In this document: piece after piece, positions 8,018-49,000 of the stretch | Numbering within the stretch: the stretch's first letter is position 1 | How the letters are laid out: every line of letters starts with the position of its first letter | Made by a program: the position numbers and the translations under genes | The notes under the pieces: generated by a model | Databases searched by the model: none | What the model was told of the DNA's origin: nothing | What the model saw: the letters and a program-made list of their open reading frames with translations, nothing else | IMG/VR virus record: IMGVR_UViG_3300007986_000012 | Direction: 5' to 3' (one strand) | Length of the DNA stretch: 64,000 nt | Source of the DNA: a virus

Positions 8018-8023
8018 GCCAAT

Positions 8024-8035: not shown

Positions 8036-8069
8036 GGTCTTCCAAGTTGGCGTTAATGCCGTTACTTTT

Positions 8070-8417
8070 TTATTTAGTATTAACGCTAACTACATTGTCA
8101 TTTTCTCTTAAATCCTTGATCTCGATCCATTGGCTGCTTCCGCCCCTATCAACTAACAATCTATGATTTTCAGTGAACTTGTATGATGATCCGTCTTCAA
8201 ATTCTATTTCAATGATTTCTTTAGGTCCATTGTAATAAAACTCGTGAGCTATAGAGTCAGACAACTCTACGGGTTTCAGGAAAGAAAACCGTTGTCCAAT
8301 CATAAACGGGTTGCTATGAATGTCTTCTATGGAAATGTTTCCGTACTCTCGGATTAGTTTTTCGAGTGTTGTTTTAGAACCGTCTTTCATTAGTATCTCG
8401 TTGTCCAAGCTCTGGCA
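8070..8417 (-). mobile_element. Split intein 2, N-half
   Basis: Starts CQSLDNEILMKDG after LMPSE; block B FTENHRLL; ends at a stop with no HN motif. Confidence 0.88.
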
Positions 8418-9068: not shown

Positions 9069-9073
9069 TTGTA

Positions 9074-10003: not shown

Positions 10004-10019
10004 TTCCGTGTATCTTTAT

Positions 10020-10364
10020 TTAGTGTTTGGATATTGTATTGCCCATAAATATTTTAAGAACATCGTCTTCACGCAAGTTCTTAGCTTCAACATAGCCTCT
10101 GTTCATAGTAAATATTTTATGTTCACCAGTGCAGGTTACGGATTTTCCACTTTTTTCACACGTTATGGTGATAAGTTCTTCACTAATTCCGGTTTGTGCA
10201 AAATCCGTTATTTCACTATATACTTCGGTACCGGTATTCAAATCATATGATTTCACTTTAACGCTTCTATGAGCAACCAGATACTTAGCCAAATCTTCTA
10301 TTATTATAGTTTCAAGGATTTCGTCATCCAGTAAGACATCTATCGTTGTATCCCCAACCACACA
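10020..10364 (-). mobile_element. Split intein 1, N-half
   Basis: CVVGDTTI block A, CTGEHKIFT block B, GYVEAKNLREDD, then stop. Confidence 0.92.
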
Positions 10365-12461: not shown

Positions 12462-14102
12462 TTGAATATATTCATGGCAACTATAAAATATCAATGTGAT
12501 ACCTGCAAGAGGGACATCGAACTTCTAGAAAACTCCAGAGGGTTGAACATGTTCAGCTCGTGTACAATAACCGAAGGTTGTAGGGGTAAAATGTATAAAC
12601 TCTCTAGAAACGCTTACAATTTTCGCGAGGCTTTTCGAGAAGCGGACCCTGCTGGTAATCTTGAAAACTTTGCCCCTAGGAAAATATTTTTCAAGCATTA
12701 CCAAAGCATTCTATCAGACAAATGGATAATTAAACACAACCTCAATACGCAACCGGTCGTCAAGGTTTTTCTGGAATCAGAAGATGGGACACAAATAGTG
12801 CCGGTGGGTTCTAATGTATTCAGCGTTATAAACAAATCTTCAAACGAACTAGAGATTGTTTTTAGTGGATCTTTCACCGGACAGGCTCATTTGATTGCCA
12901 GAAGTATTTCGGAAGACAGTATAGATACAATTCCAGATACAGAAAATCTCACCCAAATTTCTTACAACAACACGTTATCTTTTGCAGTCATATCCAGATA
13001 TAGAACGCCATTTCGAGAAATATATACAAACGGTCCAATACAGTTGGACATTGTTCTGCAAGAACCGAATGAAGAGCCTATTTTTTGTGTCGAAACCTTA
13101 TCTGGGTTAGAAGCTGGCTTGTCGCCTTGGAATGATTTTAGGTCAATTCTTTTCAGAAGAAGGCGAAACTTCAATGTGAAAACCAAAAACATAGCAGATT
13201 TTAGAGTTATAAAAGATCGCTATGAGTCATTACAAGACATTCCACAGTTGACTCGTCTAACAATCAAAGGAATAAATTTATTTCCTGATACGGAAACTTT
13301 TAGTGAAATAAAGTCTAAACAACTTTTGTTATTGTTAGCGAACAGTCCATATGACAAAGCAGATAAGAATTTGGGACAATTGATTGACATTGGCGAAATA
13401 GGACAAAAATCGGAGAATACATCATTTGTGTTTGTGAATGGTGTTTTATATTCTGACCCATCCAACATTGAAGTCGTCTATCCAAAAATAGAAAAAGATG
13501 TTGTAGTGGCTCCGTTGCCGTCCAGCACCCCAACTCCTACAGTGTCTATTACATCGTCAACCGCGCCAACACCTACACCGACACCTACCCCTACAGTGAC
13601 GCCTACAGTGACGCCTACAGTAACGCCTACAGTGACGCCTACAGTGACGCCTACACCTTCGGGCGTGTCTTTTTGTTGGGTAGGAGATACTACGGATTGG
13701 TCTGTTTTTGGGTCTGAGTCGAACCCGTATTTTGACGGAACCTGTTTTGTTTATGGTGAATTCGGTTCGTCAGTTTCAACTAACCCGATAGAATATTCCG
13801 GTTCGGGGGTTTCTTTGTCTCACGGTATAAGATTCGAACTGTTGTTGTCCGGACCGACACCCAATATTGACGTAGATATACAAATTAATGCTAATAGTCT
13901 AATAGGACCAACTGTTGTTGACACAGTTGAACTAACAAACGGTGTTCCATTTGTATATGAATTAGATGAAACTTCTGGCCTGTTCGATGGTGTTTCTTCA
14001 TTAGACCCCGCGTCTATATCAGTAAGCTACACGAGAATAGATAATTATGATGTCGTAACCATTTGTAATATTGAAGCTAGAAGCCAAGATTGTGCCCCTT
14101 AA
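12462..14102 (+). CDS. Probable virion structural protein with N-terminal Cys motif, Pro/Thr linker and C-terminal beta domain (likely start ATG 12474)
   Basis: CDTC..C....C N-terminus, WIIKHNL..QP.V.VF motif, (PTVT)5 linker, late promoter TAAATA at 12446. Confidence 0.7.
   Translation: MNIFMATIKYQCDTCKRDIELLENSRGLNMFSSCTITEGCRGKMYKLSRNAYNFREAFREADPAGNLENFAPRKIFFKHYQSILSDKWIIKHNLNTQPVVKVFLESEDGTQIVPVGSNVFSVINKSSNELEIVFSGSFTGQAHLIARSISEDSIDTIPDTENLTQISYNNTLSFAVISRYRTPFREIYTNGPIQLDIVLQEPNEEPIFCVETLSGLEAGLSPWNDFRSILFRRRRNFNVKTKNIADFRVIKDRYESLQDIPQLTRLTIKGINLFPDTETFSEIKSKQLLLLLANSPYDKADKNLGQLIDIGEIGQKSENTSFVFVNGVLYSDPSNIEVVYPKIEKDVVVAPLPSSTPTPTVSITSSTAPTPTPTPTPTVTPTVTPTVTPTVTPTVTPTPSGVSFCWVGDTTDWSVFGSESNPYFDGTCFVYGEFGSSVSTNPIEYSGSGVSLSHGIRFELLLSGPTPNIDVDIQINANSLIGPTVVDTVELTNGVPFVYELDETSGLFDGVSSLDPASISVSYTRIDNYDVVTICNIEARSQDCAP
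13590..13655 (+). repeat. 12-nt tandem repeat encoding (PTVT)5
   Basis: CCTACAGTGACG x5 (one variant), within a longer S/T/P-rich tract. Confidence 0.95.
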
Positions 14103-14117
14103 ATAGGAACAATTCTA

Positions 14118-14729
14118 GTGAATATTGATGTCCATATAATTAAAAATGACCGAGGATATCTTGACGAATGTTTGGAAAGTTTGGAAGGTTCTCCGATAAA
14201 TCTACACTTTGTTGATTATGTAGACGGAAATCACGGAAAAGCCAGAATAAAAGGATTCATGCAAGGACATTCCCCGTATGTTTCTTGTTTCGATGATGAT
14301 GACATTGCTGTTCCCACAGTGTTTGAGAGAGCATTGCGGGTAATGGAAAAGGGCTATACCGCATATTACTCCAATCATTACTATCTAGACGAAAATAGAC
14401 AGGTAAAAGGCAAGCGCTTTGGCAAGATTGCAGCAAAACCGGGGATGGGACAGGCTGCACAAATGCATCACGTTGTTGTCTATAGGAGGGACGTAATACT
14501 ACCCGTGTTACACTTGCTAGATGGAATATATGCATCAGACCAGCTTTTATTAAACCTAAAGGCAATATATGATGGGAAGGTATTGGGTGATCCATTCATG
14601 GGAATGTATTGGAGGATTCATGAACACAATTTACACAAAAGAAAAACTTTTAATAACAAAAACAACCCCAAGGAATGGCAAGATGCGGTAGAATACTATA
14701 AAAATGAGATACAGAAAAGAAATGATTGA
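14118..14729 (+). CDS. Glycosyltransferase, GT-A fold (GT2-like)
   Basis: YVSCFDDDD DxD-type motif, GKARIKG, MHHVVVYRR, MYWRIHE.NLH; 15 nt after the PTVT gene. Confidence 0.8.
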   Translation: MNIDVHIIKNDRGYLDECLESLEGSPINLHFVDYVDGNHGKARIKGFMQGHSPYVSCFDDDDIAVPTVFERALRVMEKGYTAYYSNHYYLDENRQVKGKRFGKIAAKPGMGQAAQMHHVVVYRRDVILPVLHLLDGIYASDQLLLNLKAIYDGKVLGDPFMGMYWRIHEHNLHKRKTFNNKNNPKEWQDAVEYYKNEIQKRND

Positions 14730-15321
14730 TGTGCATGTAATTCAAACAGGTCGAAAATATGCCAAAGAATGCTTGGACAGTTTGCACGATGAGCCTATAA
14801 ATCTTTTTTTGTCAAAATTTATCGAAGGTCGTATAGGATTAGCCAGAGTTAAAGCAATCATGGAGGGAAATTCCGAATTTGTATCTTTTGTGGATGACGA
14901 CGACATATTGGTCCCCGGCACTTTTGGAATAGCTTTAGAAGTTCTCAAAAAAGGATATTCGGCCTACTATACTAATCATTTTGTAATGGATTCGGAAAAA
15001 AAAGTTTATGGCAAGTGGTTTCACAAACCAGCTAAACCAATCGGTTTTTCCCAAAATATACAAATGCATCATGTAGTAGTTTATCGTAGAAGTATAATCG
15101 AACGTGTGTTTGATTCGACCGCGTTGGCCAGAACAAGCGAAAGAACTCTATTCAACCTAGCATCAATCTATCACGGGGTTGTATATGGCGATGACAGAAT
15201 GGGATTATACTGGAGAGTACACGACGATTCCGCACACAACGTGAAATGGGAAAACCCGAAAGAATGGCATATAGAAGTCGATAGATATCAACAAAAAATA
15301 TTGAACAAACAAAAGAAGTAA
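14722..15321 (+). CDS. Glycosyltransferase, GT2-like, tandem paralogue (track start 14704; likely start 14722)
   Basis: FVSFVDDDD, GLARVKA, MHHVVVYRR, LYWRVHDDSAH; colinear with the previous ORF. Confidence 0.8.
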   Translation: MIDVHVIQTGRKYAKECLDSLHDEPINLFLSKFIEGRIGLARVKAIMEGNSEFVSFVDDDDILVPGTFGIALEVLKKGYSAYYTNHFVMDSEKKVYGKWFHKPAKPIGFSQNIQMHHVVVYRRSIIERVFDSTALARTSERTLFNLASIYHGVVYGDDRMGLYWRVHDDSAHNVKWENPKEWHIEVDRYQQKILNKQKK

Positions 15322-15326
15322 ATGAT

Positions 15327-15986
15327 ATGTCTGAATTAATAGACGAACTTGCAAAAGAGGTTGGGGGAAAAGACATCTACATCATCGGGGGTGGAAAATC
15401 TTTCAATCCTTCAGCAGAATATGTTACCAAAATTCCTAAAGACAGAACCATTTGTCTTAATTCTGCGCTACAAGATTTCGACACATGCCTCGCTTGTATG
15501 TTTATGGATTCCAGTTGGCAAGGAAATAATAAAAAACTTTTGGATGAAAGAAGACAGAAATACGCACTAAGAGTCAATCTAGACCGAAGAGTACATACAC
15601 CACAAAGAAATGACTATATTATGTATTTGCGAAATTCTATGATATCCAGATGTTCTTTTGGACCAAACTACAGATTAAAGAGATATGACGTGTGTGGTAA
15701 CAATATAGGGGTGTGTGCTATCGATCTCATGGATCAAATGGGGGCAAAAAACATCTATCTCTTTGGCTTTGACTGCACTTCTGATGGAACTTCGTCCCAC
15801 TATCATAATAGATACAGGATCGTGGTCAAACAAAAAACATATGATGATAAGCTGATACCCTGCTTCAACTCTCTCGCCGAACATTTAAAGAAAAAAGGAA
15901 CACACCATCGAGTCATCAACTTCTCACGACCAACCAATATAACTTCTTTGCAGTCAAAAAGTCTGGAAGATTTCGATTTTCCCTAA
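15327..15986 (+). CDS. DUF115/Maf-like (sialyl/pseudaminyl-transferase-like) protein
   Basis: IYIIGGGKS, ICLN, AIDLM..MGAKNIYLFGFDC, SHYH motifs. Confidence 0.65.
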   Translation: MSELIDELAKEVGGKDIYIIGGGKSFNPSAEYVTKIPKDRTICLNSALQDFDTCLACMFMDSSWQGNNKKLLDERRQKYALRVNLDRRVHTPQRNDYIMYLRNSMISRCSFGPNYRLKRYDVCGNNIGVCAIDLMDQMGAKNIYLFGFDCTSDGTSSHYHNRYRIVVKQKTYDDKLIPCFNSLAEHLKKKGTHHRVINFSRPTNITSLQSKSLEDFDFP

Positions 15987-15995
15987 TGGTTTTTG

Positions 15996-16026
15996 GATGT
16001 CCTAGGTAGTCTCAACCTAGGACATC
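15996..16026. terminator. Perfect 12-bp inverted repeat between convergent genes
   Basis: GATGTCCTAGGT-7nt-ACCTAGGACATC; no U-tract on either side. Confidence 0.55.
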
Positions 16027-16044
16027 GTTGCGTGATGGTAAATC

Positions 16045-17052
16045 TTAGACACTGAACGGAAAATTGATAGCCGGAAGAGGGTCATAATCTGATATAACAA
16101 AAGAATCTTTCGTTGCGTTTTCACAAAATTCTCTCAGGTTATCATAAGTAGGGACTTTTATAGTTGGTGAAGGTTTAATTTCACGCTCCATTTGTTCCCG
16201 GAAAAGTTCTATTTGGTCCTCATAAATGTGGATGTTGTGCATTACGTGAGAAAGTTCTCCAGTCTTCAGATTGGTCATGTTAGCGACTATACGGAGTAGC
16301 AGGGCGTAGCTTGCTATGTTGTACGGGACTCCCAACGGGTAGTCACAAGACCTTTGGACCATAGTCATGTGTAAGTATCCATCCAAGATTGTAAACATAT
16401 ATGTAATATGACACGGAGGGAGTGCCATTTTGTCCAGTTCACCGGGGTTCCAATGGGTTACAATCAGTCTACGATCATCGATACCTTTACTGATCTTGGA
16501 GATGCACATGGACAACTGATCGACACTTCCACCGTCTGGTCTCTTCCAATCTCTAGCCTGTACTCCGTAAATCCTACCAAGATCATCTTGTCCTTTTCTG
16601 CTTGGATTATTTAACCACTGCTCGTTGTCGTTTGCGTTCGCATCCCAAATTTTGCAGCCCTCTTCTCTAAACAGAGCGGCGCTGTCGTGTCCTTTAATGA
16701 ATCCTATCAGTTCTGCCGCAATAGGACGAATATCCATCTTCTTGGTCGTAAGAAGTGGAAATGCATCGGTATCGGACATATCATATTTTGTCATCTCGGC
16801 TCGTATAGTGAGACACCGTTTTCCGGTTCTTTTGTTGTAAACCCAAATACCCTCTTCTAGAAGTTTTTGTCCCACTCTATTGTATTCTCCGTCGAAAAAT
16901 ACTGAATTTTGTTTCTGCATTAATTTTTGTACCTCTTGATAGCATTCTTGTCCCACAAGGTAATAATCCATTTGTGACAAGCATTGAAAATCCAAATCGC
17001 CACAATGCTCTTTAATCTTGTCCAAACACTTCGTGTTCATTGTTTTTACCAT
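16045..17052 (-). CDS. thyA: Thymidylate synthase with N-terminal extension
   Basis: PLLTTKK, DLGRIYG, RRLIVTHWNP, ALPPCH, QRSCD.PLGVPYN, HIYEDQ. Confidence 0.96.
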   Translation of the reverse strand: MVKTMNTKCLDKIKEHCGDLDFQCLSQMDYYLVGQECYQEVQKLMQKQNSVFFDGEYNRVGQKLLEEGIWVYNKRTGKRCLTIRAEMTKYDMSDTDAFPLLTTKKMDIRPIAAELIGFIKGHDSAALFREEGCKIWDANANDNEQWLNNPSRKGQDDLGRIYGVQARDWKRPDGGSVDQLSMCISKISKGIDDRRLIVTHWNPGELDKMALPPCHITYMFTILDGYLHMTMVQRSCDYPLGVPYNIASYALLLRIVANMTNLKTGELSHVMHNIHIYEDQIELFREQMEREIKPSPTIKVPTYDNLREFCENATKDSFVISDYDPLPAINFPFSV

Positions 17053-17116
17053 TTTTCTGGGAGTATTTACATATTTTATAGACTTGTGACAACTGGAGTC
17101 AAATATAATCCCAAGT

Positions 17117-17124
17117 TATAAATA
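17117..17124 (+). promoter_or_regulatory. T4-like late promoter (representative of more than 20 copies)
   Basis: TATAAATA 27 nt before ATG 17152; other sites listed in findings. Confidence 0.75.
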
Positions 17125-17151
17125 AAGATAGACAAGTTATCAAACAAATCC

Positions 17152-18402
17152 ATGAAAGAACGTATTAACGTAGAATTCAGTACGCGAGTTGTACTCAATG
17201 AAATCAACCCGGATACCGGCGAAAAATTGAACCTTTTAGATAAAAGCAACGCCGTTCATTCTCAAAATATGGCTAGGGTTATTGCTAAAGGTCTGGCCAA
17301 CGAACCAAACCATTTCATACACAGAATAGCTTTTGGGAACGGCGGTAGTTTCACTGACGCGGGAGAAGTCACTATATTAAACCCTCCTAATGACGGTACC
17401 AGAGGTGACGGTTGGGAATCTAGACTCTACAACGAGACTTATTCTGAAATAATCGATGAAGGCAACTGGGAGTTAACCGCAGGGGAATATGAATTTTTCG
17501 AAAATAGTGAATTTGGTACGGACCCCGGTTCATATGGACCGAATTCTACCCGACCGGGTGGTGGCGCTGTTCCTAGTGATGACCCCGGTGGTGGTGGTGT
17601 TACTTCTGTAGAAGTGGGACGAAAATCTAACATTGTTGCCAGAATGTTCATTAATCAAAACGAACCGACCACGCAATTGCCGGGAGTGACAGTAGATAGC
17701 ACTATTACCGACTCGGAAAAAACTTTTGAATTCGATGAACTAGGTTTCTACACACGCGGCCAACCCGCTAGTGCTAGTCCCGCCGAATCCGTCGTGAATG
17801 TCAACAATAAGATATCTAGCGACTCAATCCCGGCTTCTATGTTTGGCAATTTCTACAATTTCAACTACGAAGTACAGGGCCAAGCTCGCACGGTAGAAAT
17901 AACTATACCCGGCTCCGGTTCTGGTTCTGGTGGAGAAGTTACCTACGGTGATCTCTGTGAGGGAATAAACACTGGTGCTTGGTTAACTGGTGGCGATACC
18001 ACAGAGTTGGACAACGATTTGACTGTTTTGATCACGGACCAAGAGGGAGGGTCTACGTATTCTACGATTTCTGGGGAAGAGACATTCGGAAATTTGGTAT
18101 TTAGAAGTGTACTTCAGGGTTCCACTGCAACATTACAATTAGAGTGCTCTAATTCTGGTAGTGATTTTCTATTTGCGTTGACCGGCGATTGTACTAAAGT
18201 TGATACGTCATTAAGTACCGGGGTTAATGCTGGCGTACAAAACGATGCGGCAAATCCCGGTAATGAAAGAGAGCGACTACTAACTCATATAACATTTTCG
18301 CCTATCCTTAAAAAGGCCAACAGAATAATTGAGATTGAATATACCCTAACTGTTAGTGTTTCTCAAACACAAAGCACTTCGACTCGACTGGAAAACGTTT
18401 AA
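17152..18402 (+). CDS. Probable virion (baseplate/tail) structural protein
   Basis: Late promoter; RIAFGNGGS, FEFDELGFYT, LLTHITFSPILK.ANR...EYTL motifs; Gly/Ser/Thr-rich. Confidence 0.65.
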   Translation: MKERINVEFSTRVVLNEINPDTGEKLNLLDKSNAVHSQNMARVIAKGLANEPNHFIHRIAFGNGGSFTDAGEVTILNPPNDGTRGDGWESRLYNETYSEIIDEGNWELTAGEYEFFENSEFGTDPGSYGPNSTRPGGGAVPSDDPGGGGVTSVEVGRKSNIVARMFINQNEPTTQLPGVTVDSTITDSEKTFEFDELGFYTRGQPASASPAESVVNVNNKISSDSIPASMFGNFYNFNYEVQGQARTVEITIPGSGSGSGGEVTYGDLCEGINTGAWLTGGDTTELDNDLTVLITDQEGGSTYSTISGEETFGNLVFRSVLQGSTATLQLECSNSGSDFLFALTGDCTKVDTSLSTGVNAGVQNDAANPGNERERLLTHITFSPILKKANRIIEIEYTLTVSVSQTQSTSTRLENV

Positions 18403-20003
18403 CTCTCTTTTCTGGCAGAAGCCGGATAGTGTACAAACCTGTGATGTGTAATAGGGGATGCCAACAGGCATCCCGCTTTTATGTTCCCCGTCCTAATTTC
18501 TTTTTGGGTGTTTGTCATCAACCCGGCCTCATGAGAAATTTTGTGACCCATGAATACTTTTCGACTACCTTCTTTGGAAAACAAAATGGGCCAGTTGCAA
18601 TAAAAAAACTCTCCCACCATATAAGGTAATCCCCTATAAGAGCCACCGTAAAACATTCTTGTTTTGTCGGCATCTACTTCATCATTCTCTAAATATGTCT
18701 GTTTTTCGTTCCCAGAAATATTGTGCCATGTCCAGTTTTTAAAGTTGTCACCAAAAAACTCACTAAAAGTGAGTTTTAAATAGTCTAACTGGTTTTCTTC
18801 TAGAATTGTAGTGGCCTTGTTAAAAAGATCGGAGTCTTTATTTTTGAAACCAGTTTTGCATATTCCATCTTTCTCGTTCATGACCATATCATCTTCAAAG
18901 AAAATCATGTAACGATGCTTTGATTCATTAAAGTGTTCTGCGGCGAATCTTCTACCACCAGTGATTCCAATGTTATCAAACTTGAACTGGTGAACGTTGT
19001 ATTTTTCACACAGTTTGGAATAGGCGGAATCGTGCTTACGATCTGTAGAATTGTTGATCAAATACTTCTTACTCTCTCCGAAGAATCTCTTGAACGTTCT
19101 ATCAAATATCTCAAACTGCTTTTCGATTTGCTCTGGTGCGTTAAAGGTTAAAAAGTACAGGGCCATGTCTTCGGATTCTGATATCTCTATCTTTTTGAGG
19201 TCTTCAAAGAACTTGTATATCAACCCATTCGGCTCAATCATCTCTACGTTGAATAAATCCTTGTTTGTGTATGAGATAATAGTGAATACACTTTCCTCCG
19301 TCCCCATGTAGCCATTTTCTAGGGTGGTTTGGAGCATATGATAATAAACCCCGTTAACTCGCTCTATGGAGGTCTTAGAGCCTCCAAAAAAGCCTCCACG
19401 ACAAACATACTTCGTATCGGTACCGGCGTATTTGTCCATTCCTGACTTTTTAAAACCGTGGACCTCGATTTGTCCGTCATACGGGAAAGCCAGATATAGC
19501 ATTTTATTGTTCTGAACTTTTCGTATTAAACGCTGTTCGAAATGTGGTTCATCGAAATAACCAAGATTTAAAGTGTTTGAAATTCCAGCATCTATCCAGA
19601 AAAAATAGTCCGCGTTGAAATGATTCCATATAGCAGAATCATTGAGCATGAATTGCTTACTCATTACTAAAGGGTTGTAATTTTCCAATTTTGCTTGTGG
19701 ACTATTTTCTAACCATCGTGCCTGTTTATACCAACTCGGATTGCTTCTAACCTGTTCTATCTGTTTTTTGAAAGAACTTTCTACGGGTTTTATAACAATA
19801 TGGGTGTTAGATTTATTCCTGTACTTCCAAATAAAGTCTTCTAATTTTTTTTCACAAAATATCACCAAGTTTATGTCTTTTTCCAGAAGTTTCTTAAAAG
19901 AATTTAAATAATGTTCCATATTTCTAGAAAATGACTCATTTAATTTGTCTCTTCCTAAATCATAAAGAGCCGTTACGTATGTTATGTTTGGTTTGGTACC
20001 CAT
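18399..20003 (-). CDS. Two-domain glycosyltransferase: HtrL/YibB-like plus GT-A domain
   Basis: YVTALYDLGR, YNPLVMSK, YFFWIDAG, GGFFGG, GTEESVF; second domain NIGITGGR..A, YMIFFEDD. Confidence 0.75.
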   Translation of the reverse strand: MGTKPNITYVTALYDLGRDKLNESFSRNMEHYLNSFKKLLEKDINLVIFCEKKLEDFIWKYRNKSNTHIVIKPVESSFKKQIEQVRSNPSWYKQARWLENSPQAKLENYNPLVMSKQFMLNDSAIWNHFNADYFFWIDAGISNTLNLGYFDEPHFEQRLIRKVQNNKMLYLAFPYDGQIEVHGFKKSGMDKYAGTDTKYVCRGGFFGGSKTSIERVNGVYYHMLQTTLENGYMGTEESVFTIISYTNKDLFNVEMIEPNGLIYKFFEDLKKIEISESEDMALYFLTFNAPEQIEKQFEIFDRTFKRFFGESKKYLINNSTDRKHDSAYSKLCEKYNVHQFKFDNIGITGGRRFAAEHFNESKHRYMIFFEDDMVMNEKDGICKTGFKNKDSDLFNKATTILEENQLDYLKLTFSEFFGDNFKNWTWHNISGNEKQTYLENDEVDADKTRMFYGGSYRGLPYMVGEFFYCNWPILFSKEGSRKVFMGHKISHEAGLMTNTQKEIRTGNIKAGCLLASPITHHRFVHYPASARKES

Positions 20004-20005
20004 AA

Positions 20006-20803
20006 TTAGTTCTCTGAATAATAGTTACAACCCAATTCCGCCAAAAAAGGACAGCTATCCATTATAGTATCTGACCGCATATTTATTTGATTTGGACTCG
20101 GTGACCAGAATCTTTCTACGCTATCTAAATCAGCAACCGTACAATATTCTAAAACTTCATCCACATTAGAATCTTCAAATTCTGGCCACACCGAATAGTA
20201 ATCTTGGAATTTGATGTTATCTCCCATCAAACGATTATCATAATGATATGCTATGGCCGGAATTCCATATGCATGTGCAGTAATCAATCCATGTAGGCTA
20301 GTACTTATTATTCTCTCGCATAAATTGACCTGATCTATATAATTTTCGAAATTTTTACCGTAACGGGTACTCGGATCAATTATGTGATAATCTTTTTTTA
20401 GCTCTTTAACTTCTTCAACTATTCGATCAAAATGTATTTGGTGTGGTATTAAACCTACTTCGTATTTTTTATTTTTGTTACTCGGCTTGTAAAACTTGGA
20501 CAGTGCTATAGCCGGGTCCCCCAAGGGTACGTCTTTTCTTATCTTGTTTGCGGAGTGTTTACCCCTAACTAAAAAAAATATTCCATCTGGTTCTACATTT
20601 GTCGAAGCACTTATTATTCCGCTACCCCCAACCATTGTATTCCGCTTAGTACCAACTCCCAATATGGAGCCTGTGGAAATTACTTTATATTCCTCGTTGT
20701 GATCTACTCGTTGAAAGGGTATTCCCATTTTATTAAGCATATATGGAAAAACACAATCCCCGAAATTAGAACCTGTAACATAGTTGACTTTCAAAACTCT
20801 CAT
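20006..20803 (-). CDS. Polysaccharide pyruvyl transferase-like (track start 20869; likely start 20803)
   Basis: NFGD, GSIL, LVRG, LGDP, GLIPH, ISTSLHGLITAHAYGIPA. Confidence 0.82.
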   Translation of the reverse strand: MRVLKVNYVTGSNFGDCVFPYMLNKMGIPFQRVDHNEEYKVISTGSILGVGTKRNTMVGGSGIISASTNVEPDGIFFLVRGKHSANKIRKDVPLGDPAIALSKFYKPSNKNKKYEVGLIPHQIHFDRIVEEVKELKKDYHIIDPSTRYGKNFENYIDQVNLCERIISTSLHGLITAHAYGIPAIAYHYDNRLMGDNIKFQDYYSVWPEFEDSNVDEVLEYCTVADLDSVERFWSPSPNQINMRSDTIMDSCPFLAELGCNYYSEN

Positions 20804-20913
20804 GTTTGTACTTATTACCCCTACAATCGCATATTGCAATATTCTAGCATGTTTTCCACCCGAGAACACTATTTCAATTGAAGTAGAATTATTTCACCCC
20901 AACGTGTTAATTT

Positions 20914-22308
20914 CTAAACATCTTTTTTTACTTTACCCAACCAACCCCTGCTTTTACTATGTGGCCACAATGTATAGCTTTTAGGTATTCTGGTAGATAC
21001 AAATATAAACCGGTAGTCAATCCAACCATTGTCTGAATTTATGTGTCTTTTAAATTCATTAGAACTTAAATCTTTTCTCTGAATTTCTACTTCACCAGAA
21101 TCGTGTGCTCCCACATAACAGAAATCTATGTCGTCTATAAGTTTACCATCCTCAAAACATTTTGGAAACTCGTTTTTATGGACACATATTCTGATGTCGT
21201 TGGATCGAGCAAAAGAGTTCTTCCACTCTTCTTCTGTCTCATACGGGTAATTCACTGGGGGTTCAGTCTGATCTAATGTCGCTTGCTGGACCCCCCGGTA
21301 TTCGAAGCTAATACCCGCATACTCTTCATATTCTCGAACAGTTCTTTCTGCCCCGAATCCATACTTTCCAAAATCAATTTGATTAGGGTTTTCTCCATCC
21401 ATCCCAAATAAGATTTTATTCCTCTTGTGACAAAGTTCATTCCGCTCTACCCAGTCTTTTTCAATCACACCCGTTTTCTTCATGTCGGTGGTATGATCGT
21501 CCCAGACCTTGGTTCTTCCCTTTCGAGTATATTCGTGCCATGCTACGATTTTATGTGGCGTGTATAGATCATAACCATGAGTGAACGCCCTAGCCGCGAT
21601 AGATATTTCTTCCCCGTGGAAGAAGTATTCGGGATCATGTTGAACATCAACTGCAAAGCTCCCATCCGCAAAGGCAAAATGGCCCGAATAGAATCTAGCC
21701 CTGATAGGTTCTTTCTTCTCTTTCCAATCCTTCATCTCGGATGGAATGAAGAATACTGGACTCTCTGGGATAAAGCGATCAAAGTTGGTTTGCCACGGAA
21801 CTTGTACTCTTCCTTCCGGGTCTTTCTCCGGATTATAAGAAGGAATGTATCCGGTAAGAACCGGCTTTTTAGAATGTTTTTTGCACTGGTTTAGCATGTT
21901 AATTAGAATAGTGTCCCAACCCTCAACGAACCTGTGATGGGAATCGAGTTGAAGAGTGTAGATTTCATCAACATAGTGTTGTTGTATCATGTGTCTAGCC
22001 CAACATGCACCCCGTGCCAAAGTGTAATCAACGTCAATAAAGTCGATGACTGCACCCCGCAATTCCGTTCTTAGAACATGGAAATCTGTCACAGTTCCGT
22101 CAACCTCTGCGTGATGGTATGTTAGTACCTCGGTTATCTCTATTCCGGCGTCAAGAAAGTCTTCCGTGGCTTGTTCCTCACCATGCTGCCAGCATACTAC
22201 TATCTTAAGGTTCTCCGGCCTGTCTGCCTGTTTGGTTATGTCGATTAGAGTGGGTATTAATTCAGGATCACGATAGCTTGCTATTTGGACGAAGATTGTT
22301 TCTTTCAT
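20914..22308 (-). CDS. GT60-like protein O-GlcNAc transferase (Skp1-Hyp/polypeptide GlcNAc-T family)
   Basis: TIFVQIASYRDPEL, ARGACWAR, LQLDSHHRF (DxH), WD..L, YFHGEEI...RAFTHGYDLYTP; CTAAATA at 22337-22343. Confidence 0.82.
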   Translation of the reverse strand: MKETIFVQIASYRDPELIPTLIDITKQADRPENLKIVVCWQHGEEQATEDFLDAGIEITEVLTYHHAEVDGTVTDFHVLRTELRGAVIDFIDVDYTLARGACWARHMIQQHYVDEIYTLQLDSHHRFVEGWDTILINMLNQCKKHSKKPVLTGYIPSYNPEKDPEGRVQVPWQTNFDRFIPESPVFFIPSEMKDWKEKKEPIRARFYSGHFAFADGSFAVDVQHDPEYFFHGEEISIAARAFTHGYDLYTPHKIVAWHEYTRKGRTKVWDDHTTDMKKTGVIEKDWVERNELCHKRNKILFGMDGENPNQIDFGKYGFGAERTVREYEEYAGISFEYRGVQQATLDQTEPPVNYPYETEEEWKNSFARSNDIRICVHKNEFPKCFEDGKLIDDIDFCYVGAHDSGEVEIQRKDLSSNEFKRHINSDNGWIDYRFIFVSTRIPKSYTLWPHSKSRGWLGKVKKDV

Positions 22309-22352
22309 GTCTTGCCTTTACAGTATATTTCTTATTTATTTAGGCAAAAAAA

Positions 22353-22372
22353 GAGAGGGCGAAAGCCCTCTC
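22353..22372 (-). terminator. Intrinsic terminator
   Basis: GAGAGGGC-GAAA-GCCCTCTC with a T7 tract on the minus strand. Confidence 0.85.
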
Positions 22373-22406
22373 TCTCATCTAACCCCCGAGGCAGTGGAGG
22401 TATATT

Positions 22407-27802: not shown

Positions 27803-27803
27803 T

Positions 27804-40084: not shown

Positions 40085-43000
40085 TTATGGTATGATATCA
40101 GACGTTAAAATTTCAATAGAGCACAATGTTATTTCACCTGAAAACGCAAATCCAAGAATATCAATATTAGCACCAGTACCTATAATTCCAGATAGTCCGG
40201 TATATTCAAATATCTGGGGAACGCCATCCACCAATTCCATTGCTTGATACCCCGCCCCACCCGATATCGCATCAAAAGTCACTTGTGTGTCACCCGACAC
40301 ACCGCCTGTACCCGATGATGTTAATGTAAATCTAACACCCTGAATGTTAATGTTTTCATATGCAGGATTGATAACTATGTTCATACTATTGAACCCTTCA
40401 AAACTTTTCGTCCAACATGGGTTGGTGTATACCGTTGGGGTCTGTCCGTCACCCGTAGTTGGATCACCAGTCCAATATGTATCAGGCGTAATATCTACCC
40501 AGATTGGTACGGATGCAGCCGACGGGGTTGGGGTGGGTGATAGTATTGGTGTAACACTTGGTGTAACACTTGGTGTAACACTTGGTGTAACACTCACGGT
40601 TGGGGTGGGGGTAGGAGTTGGTGGTGGTGGTACGTCTACAGCACACTCTAATTCACTACCAACCACTTTAACAATTTCCAGCGTCTCACCTTCTAAAATA
40701 GTACCCGCATTTCCAACATCTACGGCCACCCACGAAGTCTTGAAAAAGTCCGGGTGCTTTTTCTTAGCAATCATAGAATTTTCCAGAATCTCAAAAAAGA
40801 TGTCATTGACTTCTTTCACGGTGAACAGAGCATATATCGCTCTGAGTAGCTGTACGTATCCCTCTGGTACCGTTAGATCATAAGATTCGTAGAACGCTTC
40901 TATATCACCAACAGACCATTTTCTGTTCGGTTCAAACAGCACCTGAGTAATAAGTTTTCTTAGGATGTCTCTATCAACTAAAGTTTGCTCTCTACCCAGT
41001 CCAATTCGTGTAGAAGCGCCGCGCACTAATACATCGTATCTGACTCTTTCTTCAGACGGAACCGGGACTCTCTCGTCAATGTTGAACAATTCGTCCACAA
41101 CTTCAAATCCGGTAGTACTTTCAACCACTTTTCTCCAAAGAATAAAATCGATTTTAGAAGTTTGGTTCTTTCTAATAAGTTTCCAATCTACGTGTTTGTT
41201 CTTTTTTTCTAAATCAAGACCCAGATCATCTCTTAATGTAAAATCTTTCCGAAGTCTTAGTACATAATCAGAGTTATTCTTAACGCTGTTTGCCAAACCT
41301 TTGATGATAAGTTGAGAGAATCGCAATGGTAGATTGTTGTCGTCGGGGTCGTAGGTTGCCCCGAACAACACACCATAACCATCACCCTCCTCACGGAATC
41401 CTTCAATAACGGCGTAGGGTTTGGTCATATCTGAGAGTTCACGCTCCGCGTCAAAAAGAGTAAGTGTAGTATTATTCAACAACTTCTGTGATTTGTCACC
41501 TCTAACCCAAAAGTAATACTTTGATTTTATATCACCGCTCACGCGGTCTATGTAGTCTATCTTACTGTGGGGATGTACCCGGATATAATCACCATTATCA
41601 ATTTCCTCTTCGCTAGGGACAACAGCTTCCTTTACCAACGTAATTATTGAATTGTCGGGGATATCAAGCCCGAAGGTTTCTGCTAATGCGAGCGTGGCCA
41701 AAAATACGTCATAGGAAACATAATTAAACCTTAAGGTAAATTTTCCATTAACGTACAGGTCAAGAAATTGTTCAGGTGTGAAATCTTCCAAATCTGACGA
41801 TTCTATCCCGGCCTTGGGGAAACTTCTTACAATGGTTTTTTCTTCTTCCCACCGGGCTTGTCCCGCTCCGGGATTTACTACTTTTTTATAAACCACAGAT
41901 TTTGGATTTCCTGTCAACTTTTCCCCCAGTGGTATATTTTCTAGAGACTGTTTCTCTACTTCGTTAATATAATCCTCTGGTGAGAAATCACTTTCTGTCC
42001 AGCGATACATTTCTATTTCTCCGTAATCTGCTAAATTGCCCCACTTCAGACTGCGCTCTTCTTGATTTGGAAAAATGAATTTGTCGTAGTAAGGAACGTA
42101 TCCTTTTTTGGTTATATCCAGCCAAACTTTTCCTATCTGTTTTTCTTCCCAAAAACTTTCTCTCTTGATAAACGCGCCACTGGAAGAATTAACATCAAAA
42201 TCCAAAGTATACGAGGCTGGATCTTTTTCTAGCTTAAAATCTATTGGATAATTTCCTACTGGGTTTTCTTGTCCAAAAGCCGGGTTCCATATAGGAATAT
42301 CGGCAACCACCCGTTCCTCACGTTTGTTATCTATCAACTTGAAAATGTTAGTACTGTCGTATGAATACCTCAACCCAGTAACAGTAATATTCTGCCACAC
42401 CTCGATGTTTGTAGCAATGAATTCTATGACTAACCCGTTTATAAATCTATAATCCACACCTTCGCTGGCAATGAATTTTTCATCAGAAATTTCATACTCG
42501 ATCTTAGCACCATAAACAGGGACGTTCAATCGTAAAACCGGATTATTGGTAATACTTGTGATCGTTGACGTTTGTATTAGATTTTCAGCATTCGTGAATA
42601 TTTCAGTTTCTTCAACATCTAAGAAATAACCCTTGAACGGCTTCATTAGATCCACAACATCTGGAAGATTTTCCCAACGGTTAAAATCAGTTAGTCGAAT
42701 AGGAATATAGTCCTTTCCGATAGTTCCGCCAGTTGGTGGAACAAATTCAAGTCGAAGTTCCTTTCTAATTACGTCATCCGTATTGAGTTTTATCTCAGGG
42801 TAGGCTTTTTTCTTAGAATCCCCAAACTCACATAGTTTATATGCCCAGAACTCATCAACTGTTACTCCGGTTAATGCACGTTGATTTGTAAAAGCCTCAA
42901 GTGAAAAATTTGTACCCTTGTTTTGTACAAAAGATTTCCAAAATACAAACTGTGACTTTTCGTTAATACCCAAGTTTTCCATATACTGTTTTGGTCCCTG

Positions 43001-46000
43001 ATACCCCACGGACCTTCTGACTGCCTCTGTAGTATCATCACCCCTAATGTTGTTGTATACATCGTAATAGTCTCTTATATCTTGTATCGATTTTTCGATG
43101 TTATCTATTAAGGAGTTGTCACTCAAAACCAAACCCCCCACATGGAGTCTTCCCGTGGGTTCTGTCGGCCTCAGAAAACTTAAAAACACCCTAGGGGTTT
43201 TGATTCCTAAAAAGGGATCATATATTAACTTGTTACCGCTAGTGTACTGATTAAACCTGCAAATGTGCGACACCTCGAAAATAGAATAATCCGCACCCGC
43301 AATCTTATTTTCGCTGTTCTGTGTTAACAAAACGCTTGTTTCTCTGTCATTCCTGAAAAATAATAAATTTTCTAAGTCGATGTATTCTCCATTAACATCC
43401 AAAACATTTTGTCTTTCGAATAACCCGTTTCTGGCCCTCTCAAAACTCGAAGGTAACCCTCTATCGTGGCTCACAACAAAATGGTTGTAATATGGATTGG
43501 TCATCATTTTAGGAAGAACTTTGTCACTTTTGAAAATTTCCAAATACACTTCCCCGGAGCCGGTAGAAAACTCTATAAACCTTCCGGCAGTGGCGTCGTT
43601 TTTGGAATATGCCAACTGAATAGCACCAGACCTAGTAACAATAGCGTAGTATGGTACAAACGCATTAAATGGACTGTTTAATTCTTCCGGCACCGTTCCA
43701 CCCTCACCCGCTTTCAACCTTACGGCCTGTCCAGTCGCCAAGAACTGTCCAGAAGGACTGATAAAAGAGCTAGAATCAACGTTTACCGTTGCAGATATTC
43801 TCGGGGGGAGTTCTTCTGCTCTCTGTATTAGAGTGTCTAGCCACACAATATACTTTTCAATTTCCAAAATCCATTCATTGTCTCTTCCACTGTCTTCGGC
43901 TTTATTGGTCTTGTCAAAAGGAACTGACTTAATACCGCGATCTTCCAGCAGAGCTTCATAACCAAAGAGAATATCTATGAGAGATTGTATTCTGGTTACG
44001 TTTTGAGCTTCAAAGAGGGTTTTAACGAGGCGAGTGTCTGGTTCATGTCTTCTGAATGCATAGTCTATTCTGTTCAACGGTTTAAACGTGTTTGTGACTT
44101 TTCCGACCCAGAAGTTACCAGAACCCGCAGTGGCAAAATTTATAACAGTTCCCAATTTTGCTAGGTCTTCACTCTCTGAAATCTGGAATGTTGTACCGTT
44201 AATCTTTACGATATAATAGGGAATATAATTCAGTAGTTCTCCCGGTAGTACCCCGTCTGTGTTTAAAAATACCTCTTGCCCGGTTTCCCACGGGATTGTT
44301 ATGGTATTTTCTGGGCTTACAATTCCGTCTACGATGTCGTCAGTTATAACAACATCTTCCAAGACTTTAACTAGAGTCTCGTTTCTTCTAAAATCGTATA
44401 TTACGTCGTCAACTGTATACGTCCCACCATAGTTGGTAGAAGAAGAGACCGTTATCTGGTCACCAGCCGAAAACTCTCCCAAAACGTTGCCATAAACATA
44501 GAATATTTTTTTGAACTCGAAATCAGTTATGCCGTCCTCAGACACTAAGCCCGAAGATATTACGGGAAAAAGGCTGTCTAGGCTAATGCTTATTGAAGAA
44601 CCGAGACCCGTGGCCTCGCTGCGGATGATCAAATATCCGTTTTCTAAATCGATAAAGGCACCACTTATTTGATCATTGATACTGGCGATAACGTCACCAA
44701 CTGTCGGAGTATTGGGAGAGAGTGACCCGTCTATGGTGACAACAGTAGACGTTGTGCCGTCGATATCAATAGTAAACTGGTATGGCCCTGCCGTTAACCC
44801 AGTAACATCCGTCAACGCTAAAGGTGAAGAATATATAGCTCTCCAAAAGCCTCTAGGTGAGTCTATTTCTGTGGCCTTGATTTGATACCCACCGGTTGTA
44901 AAAGTATTTGTTCCCACCAATCTAACTTGGTAATTTTGTGGTGGATAATATTCTATAGTTTTCTTCTTTTTAGGACTTTTAATATATGGTTTGAAAACCC
45001 AGTTGCTTGTTTCGTAATGAGTTCTTTCCGTGATTGGGGCTCTTTTTTGGACCGCCCAATTTATCGCGGAGAATGTATTTTCGGTCGAGTTTAGCTGGCG
45101 ATCAATGAATGTCGCATAATCTCTAGCAACTATGTCGATCTGGTCCCCCGAAACACCTAATGTAGTGTCGTTGATCAGAGTGTTAAAAATGTATGCTGCG
45201 TTTACATTCCAACCAATCCATAAATCCCTATAGTCAGAAGATCCCCCGTCTAACTCCAGATATCTATTGTAATTAACGATCCACTGCTGTATACCCGCAG
45301 AATAATAAACCGTGCCATCTTCTCTGTAGTCTCCGTGGAATAGAGTTTTAAAATGTGGATTTATATTTTGGGTTTCTTTGTTAGCAAGCAAGCAATCTAC
45401 TTGTACCAAATCATCACCATAGTTTCTGCTAAAAAATTCTATTGGATCACACAAAAAAGACGCCTTGAGCAAGAAATATAAGTAGCTACTACTATTTTTC
45501 CATTTCCACTCAACTGGACCATCTTGTCCAAAAAGAAAATCCGCATTTGGAGAAGATACATAATTGCCAAGACTCTTGTCGAATAGTGGTTTAAAGCGGG
45601 GGTCTGCCGATAGCGAACCATCCCAATATGGTGGTGCCAGTTCATCACTAGCAATACCCGCCACGGTACTTCCGGTTACGTTAACGGGAGAGTAATCGTA
45701 AATTTGAGTTTCTCCACTGTTGCCAGTAGAAATAGTTCCATTTGGTAATTCTTGTCCGGCTGGGACGACTCCAGTGAATATGTTATCCCACATAGTTTCT
45801 TTCCAGAATCGATCTATTCCTAAATCGTTATTCTTGTATGTGGTCTTCCACCATGTGGGCTCTTCTTCATAACCTTGCAAGATCCAAGGTTCTCGGTGGG
45901 GATATGCTGTTCCATATATTTCTTCATACAATCCCTGCCACGATGCCTTTCCCCTAGCAGAAAAAACTCCGGAAAGTGGATGTGTTGCTATGTCGGTATT

Positions 46001-49000
46001 GGCGTAGTTCCATGTAAAAGCATCCCCGCTCTGGAACGCGGTGTTGTGTAGTGCATCTTCTCCGACCAAACACAAAAATTCGGTCTCTTCAAGATCTCTA
46101 AAACGACTGTTTGTTTTAGTCAACTCTAGATTATAAAATTCGTCTAATGGCTCTCTGTGCTGTCCGGCAGAGTATAACAGAGTTTCCAACTCGTAAAGCA
46201 AATTGGCAATTTGTCCGATCACATCAATCTCGGTCCATGAACCTGATTCTAATTGATACAAAGATATGCTTTTTTCGGAAGAAACCCCCCTAACCAAATA
46301 GTCTCCTTCTGCATAATCTGCTATATCCGGGAAAGCTTCACTGTCTTCGGACACCTTCTGTGTATTTTTGGTTAGTATTCCGTAGAATTTGCTCTTCTGA
46401 GCGTTCGTTATATCTAATGTGAAATATGTGCCATCGTGTCTTTTGACTATCCAGTCTTCACCCCGTTTGAATATAGAAGGTTTAGAAAGCCCCGTCATTC
46501 TCAAAATTGCCGAAGTTGATATTACGTTTTTGATCCCATATCCATCAGCGTAACTAAAAGAATCTCCAAACAAACGATCCCATCTTGTGTTATTTTCGGT
46601 GTAATTTTCGAAGTTTTCTATTAAATCGACTTCTGACATTTCTAAAAAAGTAGAAAGATTTTCTAGATATCGTAATGTCCACCTATAAGTAAGTCGTTCG
46701 TATGCGTCCCCCACAAAATCTAAAGTTTTGGGTATATCAATTTGTTCCCCCAACATCGCAGAGACTAGTAGGTCGAGGTTGCCGTTGTGTTCTTTGATGG
46801 TACCACCCAATCCGAAGTTTGGATTGTTCAAAGCATGAAACACTTCTTCTGGGTTTGTCGAATTGTATTTTGTCGGTTCTTGTGCTAATGTTATAGTTTT
46901 GAAATGTCTAAATAAGTCGGTGAGACTTACTTCCTTTCTAAGCTCATGCTGTATGTTATATTTCCAACTGTTGGGTATGTCCCAGTCACTTTCTATTTTT
47001 TCTGGGACGGATTGTTCATTAAACTCTCCTTTCTTCCAAATAGTTTTAATCTTATTGTCCCTTAAATCTAAATAGCAGCGTAATTTTCCTTCAGAATCCA
47101 CAAGACCGTGTTCAAAAACTAGATCTCGTTCATTCCTCTTGTATTCTGCTCTTAGGTCTAACGTTCTATTCAACTCAAATTCTCCATTTTCTTTAAACCA
47201 GAAAATAGAGTTAGATTCTTCTAGTGGGTTTCCTAGAATATCATATATTTTGAACAAGGGATATTGGTTAGTTTTGGTTTTAGTTTGTTCTATTCTCTTA
47301 TATCGAGACAGGTTATAGATATCTGGTGAATTTCCCGTAGGATCAACCACTACAACGTCTTTTCGACCGATGTCGTGTGTCCAATATTCTCCTAATTCGA
47401 TACGAACTAGCGTGTCCGGGGTGATAACTAGGTCACTATCTAGAACAATAGCCCCAACGTAATTGGTATTGTTGGCGGGAATGTCTGTATGTCTTCCATA
47501 TATTCTTTTTCCGTCGATATACAGACGAAGGTCTCCTTCTTGGTAATCCTCAATCAAACACAAATCCGTAAGAGATTCATCAAGCTCCAACCTAGCTCCA
47601 TTTATTGTAGAAGTAGGGTTGAATTCTTGCCAGTATAGCCCTATTTTGGTTTGGTATTCTTGGAAAACGCTATTTGTCTCTGTCTTAATTTGTATAGCAG
47701 GTCCATCTAGCATGGGGTTTTTTTCGGGCTCTGCACCACTGGCTGTGATATTTTTTATTCCAACAAAAGCCCAGTGAGTAACCAGTGGATCAAAAGTATC
47801 CCCCAAACTGGTACGTTCCGGGTAGATTGTTCCCCCTCCATCAGAAATGTCATCGCCCACGCTGAAGAAATTCTCTACTACCCGGATAACGGATTGATAT
47901 CTTTCACCCGGAGTAAATTGTACAAATTCTACACTGTCAATAGTGTACTGGCCGTCGTTGGTGTTAAATCCAACGAGATTTATATTGTCGCCCTTTGTGA
48001 GAACCGATTCCATATTACCAAATCTGGCCGGTAGTAGTAATTCGTTTGAAGCTAACTGAAAAACTGGGACATTTTCGCTATCTGATTCTTCTATTTTTAT
48101 AGGTCTAATTTCTAAAAGATTGGGTTGGTCTTCAACTTTTTTGTATTGATCTTCAACTGTCTTTCGGTAAGCCCATTCAAATTCAAATTTGGAAAAGTAG
48201 GAAAGCTCTATGTAGTTCTTATATTCTATAATCGGTTGTGTTGCCTGACGACTTTCCGAAAGATTCGTAATTTGGTTTTTGTGTACCCACTTGTTTTCAT
48301 CAGCCCAGTCGTTGCTGTCCGCTCGTAATTTGCTGTTTTCACTTTCGTACAATATAGAAAAAGACCTGACTTTCGTCTTCCACTGTCCGTCAATCCATTG
48401 ATATAAAATGTCAGTGGTCGTATCGAAGAAAAAATCATTTTCTTGGGCATATACATTTGCAGATAGACTATCTTTGACGTATATTTGATAAGAAATATTT
48501 TCGTCTTTGAAAAATTCAACACCGTCAACTAAAAATCTATCAGGGTCACCAAAAACTGCACCTTCGACCCAACTAGATAAATCATGGTCCCCTGTGTTTG
48601 GGCCACTATTTATTTTGATTCCGTACTCGGCACCGACAACAAGCTCTGACGCGGGTCCACCGAAATATTGTATTACTTCGTTTTCGCCAAGTGACAGTAC
48701 GAAGCCCCCATTTGACGAAAAAACTTCCCGACGGTCATACCATACGGGCTCGCCGAGGTCATAGATGTTTATTTCGTCAACCTGCTGTGGCTCTGCCACA
48801 TCTTGAAAATATATGGATTCACTTCTAGCGGCGTATGCATAAGCATGAACAGATACCCGTGTAGGGGAGGTTTGGGGGACAGTTTTAAGCGTGAATACAC
48901 TTTCATTATTGTCTTCGTCAAACTCGTAAGATTGAACCTCGACAAATTCTTGTATACCATCCAAATCCGTATATAAACTTAAAATAAAACCTTCACGAGC

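Follow-up and report, generated by a model that had tools for sequence, protein, structure and literature searches.

The stretch of viral DNA analysed here (IMG/VR record IMGVR_UViG_3300007986_000012; 64,000 nucleotides, hereafter "the window") is a jumbo myovirus stretch with a GC content of ∼39% that carries, between positions 12462 and 22308, an island of glycan-modifying genes. We consider it probable, at roughly 60%, that this island serves a phage-encoded, cytoplasmic O-glycosylation of Thr/Ser-Pro linkers on the appendage proteins of the phage itself, as judged from gene content, predicted folds and gene neighbourhood. A first-pass annotation of the DNA letters had arrived at a related interpretation, which was partly supported overall. 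The six soluble glycan-modifying enzymes that it had listed were all recovered as open reading frames (ORFs) at 12462-22308. On the plus strand, two GT2-like genes and a Maf-like gene directly follow the gene for a 546-aa protein with (PTVT)5, as had been claimed, with a 15 nt gap, a 26 nt overlap and a 5 nt gap. On the minus strand, a GT60-like gene, a pyruvyl transferase gene and an HtrL fusion gene are separated by gaps of 44 nt and 2 nt. The lack of membrane anchors was likewise borne out, since the highest 19-residue Kyte-Doolittle mean was at most 1.27 in all eight proteins. This agrees with an action in the cytoplasm, the place of virion assembly. Megablast found no match for the island among 50,697 phage records, so that relatives of the island exist at the protein level only; the proteins of the window are 33–58% identical to those of the Xanthomonas phages XacN1 and Xoo-sp13 and the Stenotrophomonas phages CM1 and RAS14.

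Central to this reading is the soluble GT60-like glycosyltransferase (PF11397; 20914..22308, minus strand), which ends in a beta-rich domain at residues ∼365–464. Checked against the hidden Markov model (HMM) PF11397, the protein scored 264.2 bits against a cut-off of 21 and covered model positions 1–351 of 352. Its DSH motif comprises residues D122-S123-H124 and was invariant in 20 homologues. A DxH motif that replaces DxD marks the families GT27 and GT60, both of which are polypeptide Ser/Thr O-glycosylation families (PMC7185993). Because a PDB sequence search with the GT60-like protein and the HtrL fusion returned nothing meaningful, fold searches were needed for both proteins. The AlphaFold2 (AF2) model of the GT60-like protein reached a predicted local distance difference test score (pLDDT) of 86.5, and the top matches listed by Foldseek for this model were polypeptide N-acetylgalactosamine (GalNAc) transferases only. 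An exhaustive structure search (VIA) over 48,161 chains, which was independent of Foldseek, placed mGalNAc-T1 (Z 20.7, 282 residues aligned) and TgGalNAc-T3 (Z 19.1) ahead of the next-best other GT-A enzymes, which had Z values of 15.9 or less. The HMM, the DxH motif and the fold thus all agree on the GT60 assignment given in the first-pass annotation. By analogy with its characterised relatives, we propose that this enzyme may be an initiating polypeptide Thr O-glycosyltransferase.

The characterised GT60 enzymes, DdGnt2 of Dictyostelium and TcOGNT-2 of Trypanosoma cruzi, transfer alpha-N-acetylglucosamine (alpha-GlcNAc) onto Thr residues of mucin-like tracts (PMC3769586). The phage enzyme has in common with this class the full-length HMM match, the DSH motif and a GT-A fold that is nearest to GT27, and the acceptors of the protist enzymes are Thr-rich mucin-like tracts. 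It differs in that the protist enzymes are Golgi type II membrane proteins, whereas the phage enzyme is soluble, has the extra C-terminal beta-rich domain and is encoded by a gene carried by phage and bacteria; its donor and acceptor are predicted only. The GT27 enzymes of animals and Toxoplasma, which start mucin-type O-glycosylation, provide the best structural match, share the DxH motif and likewise combine a catalytic domain with a C-terminal accessory domain. However, they are only 11–16% identical to the phage enzyme in sequence and act in another cellular compartment, and no ricin-type lectin domain has been shown for the phage enzyme. A large protein collection contained more than 6,700 GT60-like homologues. 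The nearest 120 were mostly 450–470 aa long with the same C-terminal domain, and many were encoded on contigs of 100–345 kb. Among the metagenomic homologues, P0003, P0010, P0011 and P0116 were some 700–800 aa long, a length that implies fusion to an extra domain, and one long homologue had been named "GT2 family glycosyltransferase" by its source.

The window encodes two candidate acceptors for such an enzyme. The first is the 546-aa protein (12462..14102, plus strand; probable ATG at 12474), the translation of which consists of an N-terminal domain of ∼345 aa, a linker rich in Pro, Thr and Ser (P/T/S linker) and a head of ∼140 aa that resembles the beta-sandwich of a carbohydrate-binding module (CBM). 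The linker spans residues 350–403 (13509..13670, plus strand) and contains PTVT five times. The N-terminal 343 aa are orthologous to XacN1 ORF372, Xoosp13_332 and RAS14 WAX21604 (33% identity), which measure 1088 aa, 1439 aa and 530 aa, respectively; the last has the same architecture, and Xoosp13_332 is annotated as "gene transfer agent host specificity protein". In the window phage and in these relatives alike, the gene lies between the ribonucleotide reductase (RNR) genes and the tail-sheath genes, and the P/T/S linker begins at about residue 345–365. This orthology, the shared position and the common start of the linker make a structural, fibre-like role of the 546-aa protein plausible. 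The gene had been described as a late structural gene with (PTVT)5; the repeat and the kinship with fibre-like proteins were upheld, while the term "late" was not supported.

The second candidate is a giant virion protein of 3223 aa (40085..49756, minus strand), which matches phrog_10938 ("virion structural protein") and adjoins the baseplate wedge genes. The (SVTP)4 linker that had been noted in it was indeed present, with SVTP occurring four times at residues 3040–3080 (40517..40639, minus strand). P/T/S linkers were also found near the C-terminus of its orthologues XacN1 ORF325 and Xoosp13_296, and the RsoM2USA orthologue ends exactly where the linker of the others begins. The domains C-terminal to the linkers of the 546-aa and giant proteins are homologous to each other (BLASTP 7e-9), and as a lead, the head of the 546-aa protein resembles CBM_4_9, GH16 and F5/8-C folds in the Atlas (template modelling (TM) score by query, 0.61–0.70). 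Among the 53 scanned ORFs of at least 120 aa in the window, only these two encode long P/T/S linkers. The coding pattern TPTxTPTxTPT occurred five times in the window, as compared to 0.00 expected from shuffles.

An association between GT60 and P/T-repeat genes across phages had been named as a check on the pathway, and the outcome was clearly positive. GT60 relatives were present in at least 577 IMG/VR stretches, 80 of which were analysed with 10-kb flanks together with two cultured loci (82 in total). A P/T-repeat gene was located directly upstream of GT60 in 39 of the 82 loci (0.48). The second and third upstream positions had shares of 27% and 16%, respectively, and all other positions within ten genes had 0–13%. 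At least one P/T-repeat gene lay within 10 kb in 59/82 loci, and 114 of the 125 such genes were encoded on the same strand as GT60. After dereplication at 90% identity, the gene was directly upstream in 21/60 loci and within 10 kb in 40/60. P/T-repeat genes reached a density of 8.3 per 100 kb at the GT60 loci, ∼10-fold higher than in the IMG/VR controls centred on the RNR small subunit (1.0) and the tail sheath (0.8). When only loci of at least 15 kb were considered, 45/61 GT60 loci and 4/31 control loci had a P/T gene (Fisher p 3e-8, a value that overstates independence because the loci are mutually related). The enrichment holds in spite of the AT-rich composition of the GT60 loci (median GC 0.34), which works against runs of ACN-CCN codons. 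The only other widely conserved gene was the HtrL fusion, found in 71/82 loci on the same strand and usually 1–7 kb downstream; variable neighbours included genes for carbamoyl transferase, GT25, PhoH and DNA polymerase B. Pfam and PHROGs searches with the P/T-repeat proteins gave little beyond InlB B-repeat and weak ConA-like matches.

A corresponding pattern was seen among cultured phages. The strict pattern TPTxTPTxTPT missed RAS14 and CM1, the linkers of which are of the PTPTPS type, and TPTPTP was therefore used in its place. Sites encoding TPTPTP numbered 29 in XacN1, 26 in Xoo-sp13, 19 in RAS14 and 19 in CM1, all of which are GT60-positive, as opposed to zero in RsoM2USA, Atu_ph07, PA5oct, RaK2, SCTP-2 and Phosso, six tail-sheath relatives without a match in the GT60 tblastn search. 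Since the four positive phages all belong to a single clade, this comparison amounts to about one independent event. Controls with the reversed pattern gave counts of 0–1. In the GT60-positive cultured phages, TPTPTP tracts were located at ten or more separate genome regions beyond the two studied orthologues (for instance at ∼83–132 kb and 235–276 kb of XacN1, AP018399, and at ∼60–67, 198–202 and 231 kb of RAS14, OP752703), and many proteins of these phages may thus be acceptors.

The pairing of enzyme and linker was also encountered in bacteria. Full-length GT60-like homologues were present in 216 bacterial chromosome stretches. In 32 of the 80 loci examined, mostly from Burkholderiaceae and Alcaligenaceae isolates, the gene was situated inside a type VI secretion system (T6SS) cluster with genes for TssE, TssF, TssG, TssA, VgrG, TagF and TssM. 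The VgrG matches ended in a long P/T/S-rich repeat of the type (PT)n, (PPTE)n, (PPPSEE)n or (EPSTP)n in 18 of 21 cases. Two of the remaining three, matched in a wrong-strand ORF, were unreadable; the third ends otherwise and stems from an Acidobacteriota metagenome-assembled genome, in the locus of which neither TssF nor TssM was matched. The HtrL fusion was absent from the T6SS-associated GT60 loci examined. Examples of these loci are L217:4359-20559 (Ralstonia sp. 25C chromosome 1), L219 and L231, with ∼30 more among L213–L292. A GT60-like enzyme thus again accompanies a tract of hydroxy amino acids and proline, here on a phage-tail-like machine that is assembled in the cytoplasm, and this raises O-glycosylation of VgrG as a possibility. 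Conceivably, GT60-like enzymes could represent a widespread prokaryotic and phage version of "mucin-type" O-glycosylation that acts on Pro/Thr/Ser linkers of contractile injection machines, namely the fibre and baseplate proteins of jumbo phages and the C-terminal tails of T6SS VgrG spikes, with swappable modules giving lineage-specific glycans. We regard this wider view as tentative and its chances as falling just short of even.

Direct observations on virion glycoproteins are available for the related phage XacN1. Yoshikawa et al. (2018) detected at least two Schiff-positive protein bands in XacN1 virions (Suppl. Fig. S4), listed ORF328 and ORF334 as glycosyltransferases and proposed a phage-encoded glycosylation like that of PBCV-1 (PMC5852040). 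The first-pass annotation, which knew of no description of a pathway of this kind, had overlooked this study; the GT60 gene of the window is orthologous to ORF334 (58% identity). The study names neither GT60 nor P/T linkers, acceptor proteins or a wider distribution (PMC5852040). Further XacN1 counterparts are ORF330 for the HtrL fusion, ORF329 for the phrog_11259 gene and ORF326 for a GT2-like gene. In XacN1 and Xoo-sp13, the baseplate wedge genes are followed by the giant protein (ORF325), GT2-like genes and the phrog_11259 gene, and the opposite strand carries GT60, a carbamoyl transferase, an HtrL-like gene, an ORF and the HtrL fusion. In the window, the giant protein is located elsewhere and the 546-aa linker protein takes its place before the GT2 genes. 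XacN1 thus belongs to the same clade and has the same gene module, although the Schiff-stained proteins are those of XacN1 and a carbamoyl transferase stands where the window phage has the pyruvyl transferase. Literature searches on GT60 with phage, on VgrG glycosylation and on Xoo-sp13 yielded nothing relevant. For mycobacteriophages, virion glycosylation is an established finding (Freeman et al. 2023, as cited in PMC12582341). Phage-encoded glycosyltransferases O-glycosylate structural proteins of the same phage in the cytoplasm in that system, as we propose here. The mycobacteriophage system operates in Actinobacteria hosts, and it is not known to involve a GT60 enzyme or P/T-linker stalks.

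The other enzymes of the island could extend and modify a glycan started by the GT60-like enzyme. The two GT2-like proteins (14118..14729 and 14704..15321, plus strand) are small GT-A glycosyltransferases with a DDDD motif and are paralogues of each other. Both were borderline for PF00535 (26.9 and 23.4 bits, cut-off 23.3); the first matched phrog_19440 (2.8e-22) and the second phrog_19440 and phrog_14775. The second also matches the gene directly after the giant protein in XacN1 and Xoo-sp13. The DUF115/MptE-like protein at 15327..15986 (plus strand), which is of Maf or GT42-like type, has an IYIIGGGKS motif. It had been called Maf-like, and this call found a footing in the match to phrog_4603 (4e-21) but is weak, as the PF01973 test failed with 23.8 bits over 32 residues against a cut-off of 34.6. 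Since phrog_4603 is annotated as "alpha-2,3-sialyltransferase", a related phage family is suggested, and the protein is a possible terminal sugar transferase. The family scans of the window revealed no genes for nonulosonic-acid synthesis.

On the minus strand, the 534-aa HtrL fusion (18399..20003) joins an HtrL_YibB domain (PF09612, 55.8 bits, cut-off 24.1, residues 6–253) to a second GT-A domain. It scored 64 bits with TIGR02192, which is below the equivalog cut-off. We know of no tested function for the HtrL_YibB family. The tandem arrangement that had been reported was confirmed by an AF2 model with two GT-A domains (pLDDT 86), by an invariant acidic motif in each domain (D138 and E370/D372; 22 homologues) and by Foldseek, the best matches being the two-domain GT-A proteins LH3, K4CP, Mimivirus R699, LARGE1 and PmHS2. 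The HtrL fusion thus shares two GT-A domains with bifunctional tandem enzymes such as LARGE1, the chondroitin polymerase K4CP, PmHS2, LH3 and R699, yet the whole-chain TM scores were low (0.22–0.29) and the likeness does not imply a polymerising activity. The pyruvyl transferase-like enzyme (20006..20869) matched PF04230 with 38.8 bits (cut-off 25.3) over the C-terminal half of the model, positions 126–280 of 280. As its place is taken by the carbamoyl transferase in XacN1 and Xoo-sp13, we propose that it is a variable decorating module.

From the observed gene content, fold, motif and neighbourhood and phyletic associations, we infer an acceptor, a sugar, an order of steps (prime, extend, cap) and a benefit as follows. 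With a UDP-sugar as donor, the GT60-like enzyme would attach the first sugar to hydroxyl groups of Thr residues in the 546-aa and giant protein linkers. By analogy with the family, this sugar would be an N-acetylhexosamine, most likely alpha-GlcNAc. The tandem GT-A enzyme (18399-20003) would then lengthen the chain, possibly with a repeating disaccharide, and lineage-variable enzymes would diversify or cap it. In the window phage these would be the GT2-like pair, the Maf/GT42-like protein and the pyruvyl transferase, and in XacN1 the set would include the carbamoyl transferase. The outcome would be stiff, hydrated and protease-resistant stalks that bear CBM-like heads.

Several points weigh against this O-glycosylation of appendage linkers. 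No glycan has been demonstrated on any linker, and glycoprotein staining is on record only for virions of XacN1, the Schiff-positive bands of which are not assigned to proteins. The relatedness of the GT60 loci and the single clade of the cultured phages, as mentioned above, limit the weight of the associations, and the 10-kb surroundings were devoid of P/T genes in 23 of the 82 GT60 loci (28%). Secreted carbohydrate-active proteins often contain P/T linkers, both with and without glycosylation. The typical setting of the HtrL, pyruvyl transferase, GT2, GT25 and carbamoyl transferase families is lipid-carrier polysaccharide synthesis. Lastly, the neighbours of the island are replication and nucleotide-metabolism genes, and the motif before the GT60 gene is CTAAATA, which is shared with RNR and HNH genes, and not TATAAATA.

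The loci without a nearby P/T gene and the unassigned XacN1 bands would fit a GT60-like enzyme that glycosylates other proteins, such as capsid, sheath or host proteins, with the P/T genes merely co-travelling in a variable "appendage" region. The glycosylated proteins of mycobacteriophages are reportedly capsid and tail-tube subunits, modified on their C-terminal tails, and they would set a precedent for this. Such an explanation seems quite unlikely to us, however, as the P/T enrichment peaks directly upstream of GT60 and falls with distance, the pairing recurs in T6SS clusters, an unrelated setting, and the GT60 enzymes characterised so far modify mucin-like tracts rich in Thr (PMC3769586).

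The signals for transcription bear on a further alternative. At 22337..22385 (minus strand), the sequence shows a terminator-like hairpin that belongs to the upstream gene and, behind it, CTAAATA 35 nt before the GT60 start; this arrangement suggests that the operon may have its own promoter. CTAAATA also precedes the first GT2 gene, besides the RNR and HNH genes. The exact TATAAATA motif, which is weakly enriched (10 occurrences versus 4.7 expected), precedes the giant protein (27 nt upstream), the wedge genes and the gene at 17152-18402 (28 nt upstream). The genes flanking the island encode RNR, thymidylate synthase, Nudix, RNase H-like exonuclease and DNA polymerase. Thus, the second operon does contain the GT60-like gene with DSH, the pyruvyl transferase and the HtrL/GT-A fusion, but the designation of the operons as late was not supported, as their neighbours belong to nucleotide metabolism and replication and the GT60 operon has CTAAATA instead of the structural-gene motif TATAAATA. 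Flanking genes and a promoter-like motif that appear early or middle, not late, would suit enzymes that remodel an envelope glycan of the host during infection, be it the core or O-antigen of lipopolysaccharide (LPS), exopolysaccharide (EPS) or capsule, and that could thereby block superinfection or keep progeny off debris, the P/T linkers being bystanders. HtrL_YibB, PS_pyruv_trans and GT2, as well as GT25 and carbamoyl transferase of related loci, indeed occur in pathways for LPS, EPS and cell-wall polymers, and polysaccharide glycosyltransferases of the cytoplasmic face likewise lack membrane segments. Nevertheless, the GT60-like fold matches polypeptide transferases 3–5 Z units above polysaccharide GT-A enzymes, the GT60 gene tightly adjoins same-strand P/T-repeat genes, and no flippase, polymerase or priming transferase was present among the annotated families. 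In addition, the T6SS-VgrG context suits a protein acceptor and XacN1 virions hold glycoproteins (PMC5852040). We therefore consider a host-envelope target unlikely.

The surroundings of the island also bring to mind the T4 glucosyltransferases, which act on modified bases of phage DNA. DNA is the target of many phage glycosyltransferases, and RNR, a thymidylate-synthase homologue, Nudix and DNA polymerase genes surround the island. The thymidylate-synthase homologue (thyA, 16045-17052), located between the two glycosyltransferase operons, was, however, a canonical ThyA (TIGR03284, 205 bits, cut-off 108), and as it is the sole such homologue in the window, a T4-type dCMP/dUMP hydroxymethylase was not found there. 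XacN1 DNA is cut by BssHII, NaeI and SpeI, among them enzymes sensitive to C modification, and was sequenced normally. The canonical thyA, the cutting of XacN1 DNA, the polypeptide-transferase fold of the GT60-like enzyme and its bacterial homologues in T6SS clusters, which are unconnected with DNA, together make DNA glycosylation highly improbable. A 2026 Nucleic Acids Research (NAR) paper on glycosylated 5-hydroxycytosine mentions neither this clade nor carbamoyl transferases or HtrL.

Glycosylation of virions by phage enzymes has been documented in a few cases only. Should O-glycosylation of the appendage linkers be confirmed, a mucin-type pathway so far ascribed to protists and animals alone would turn out to be common in environmental jumbo phages, as the enzyme is carried by more than 570 IMG/VR contigs and has thousands of metagenomic homologues, and it may act on bacterial T6SS spikes as well. 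The glycans would matter for the stability of the virion, the recognition of hosts, the antigenicity of therapeutic and biocontrol phages and the interpretation of P/T linkers. This is directly testable, because XacN1, Xoo-sp13, RAS14 and CM1 carry the module and mass-spectrometry data for XacN1 virions are public as ProteomeXchange PXD008065 / jPOST JPST000339.

A further conserved gene of the island (17152..18402, plus strand) encodes a 416-aa phrog_11259 protein (3.2e-81) that is 47% identical to XacN1 ORF329, which has the same position. Its relatives in the Atlas were all viral, with Phage_tail_fib in 14% of the members of one cluster, and it is possibly a virion protein instead of an enzyme. 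Elsewhere in the window, the RNR large subunit was found in separate pieces on the minus strand (10020-11690, 8070-9068 and probably 6493-7032; region 7022-11690), interleaved with homing/HNH endonuclease genes at 9074-10003 and 7022-8017. The family B DNA polymerase (26852-29993, minus strand) consists of two overlapping ORFs, 27804-29993 and 26852-27829, which match different parts of phrog_262. At the end of the window, a truncated ORF (62866-63999, plus strand) contains Hint and LAGLIDADG homing-endonuclease domains and thus an intein. Three further ORFs, all on the minus strand, encode a nucleoside 2-deoxyribosyltransferase-like protein (30733-31596), an ATP-grasp (R2K) protein (966-1793) and a peroxiredoxin-like protein (2324-2860).

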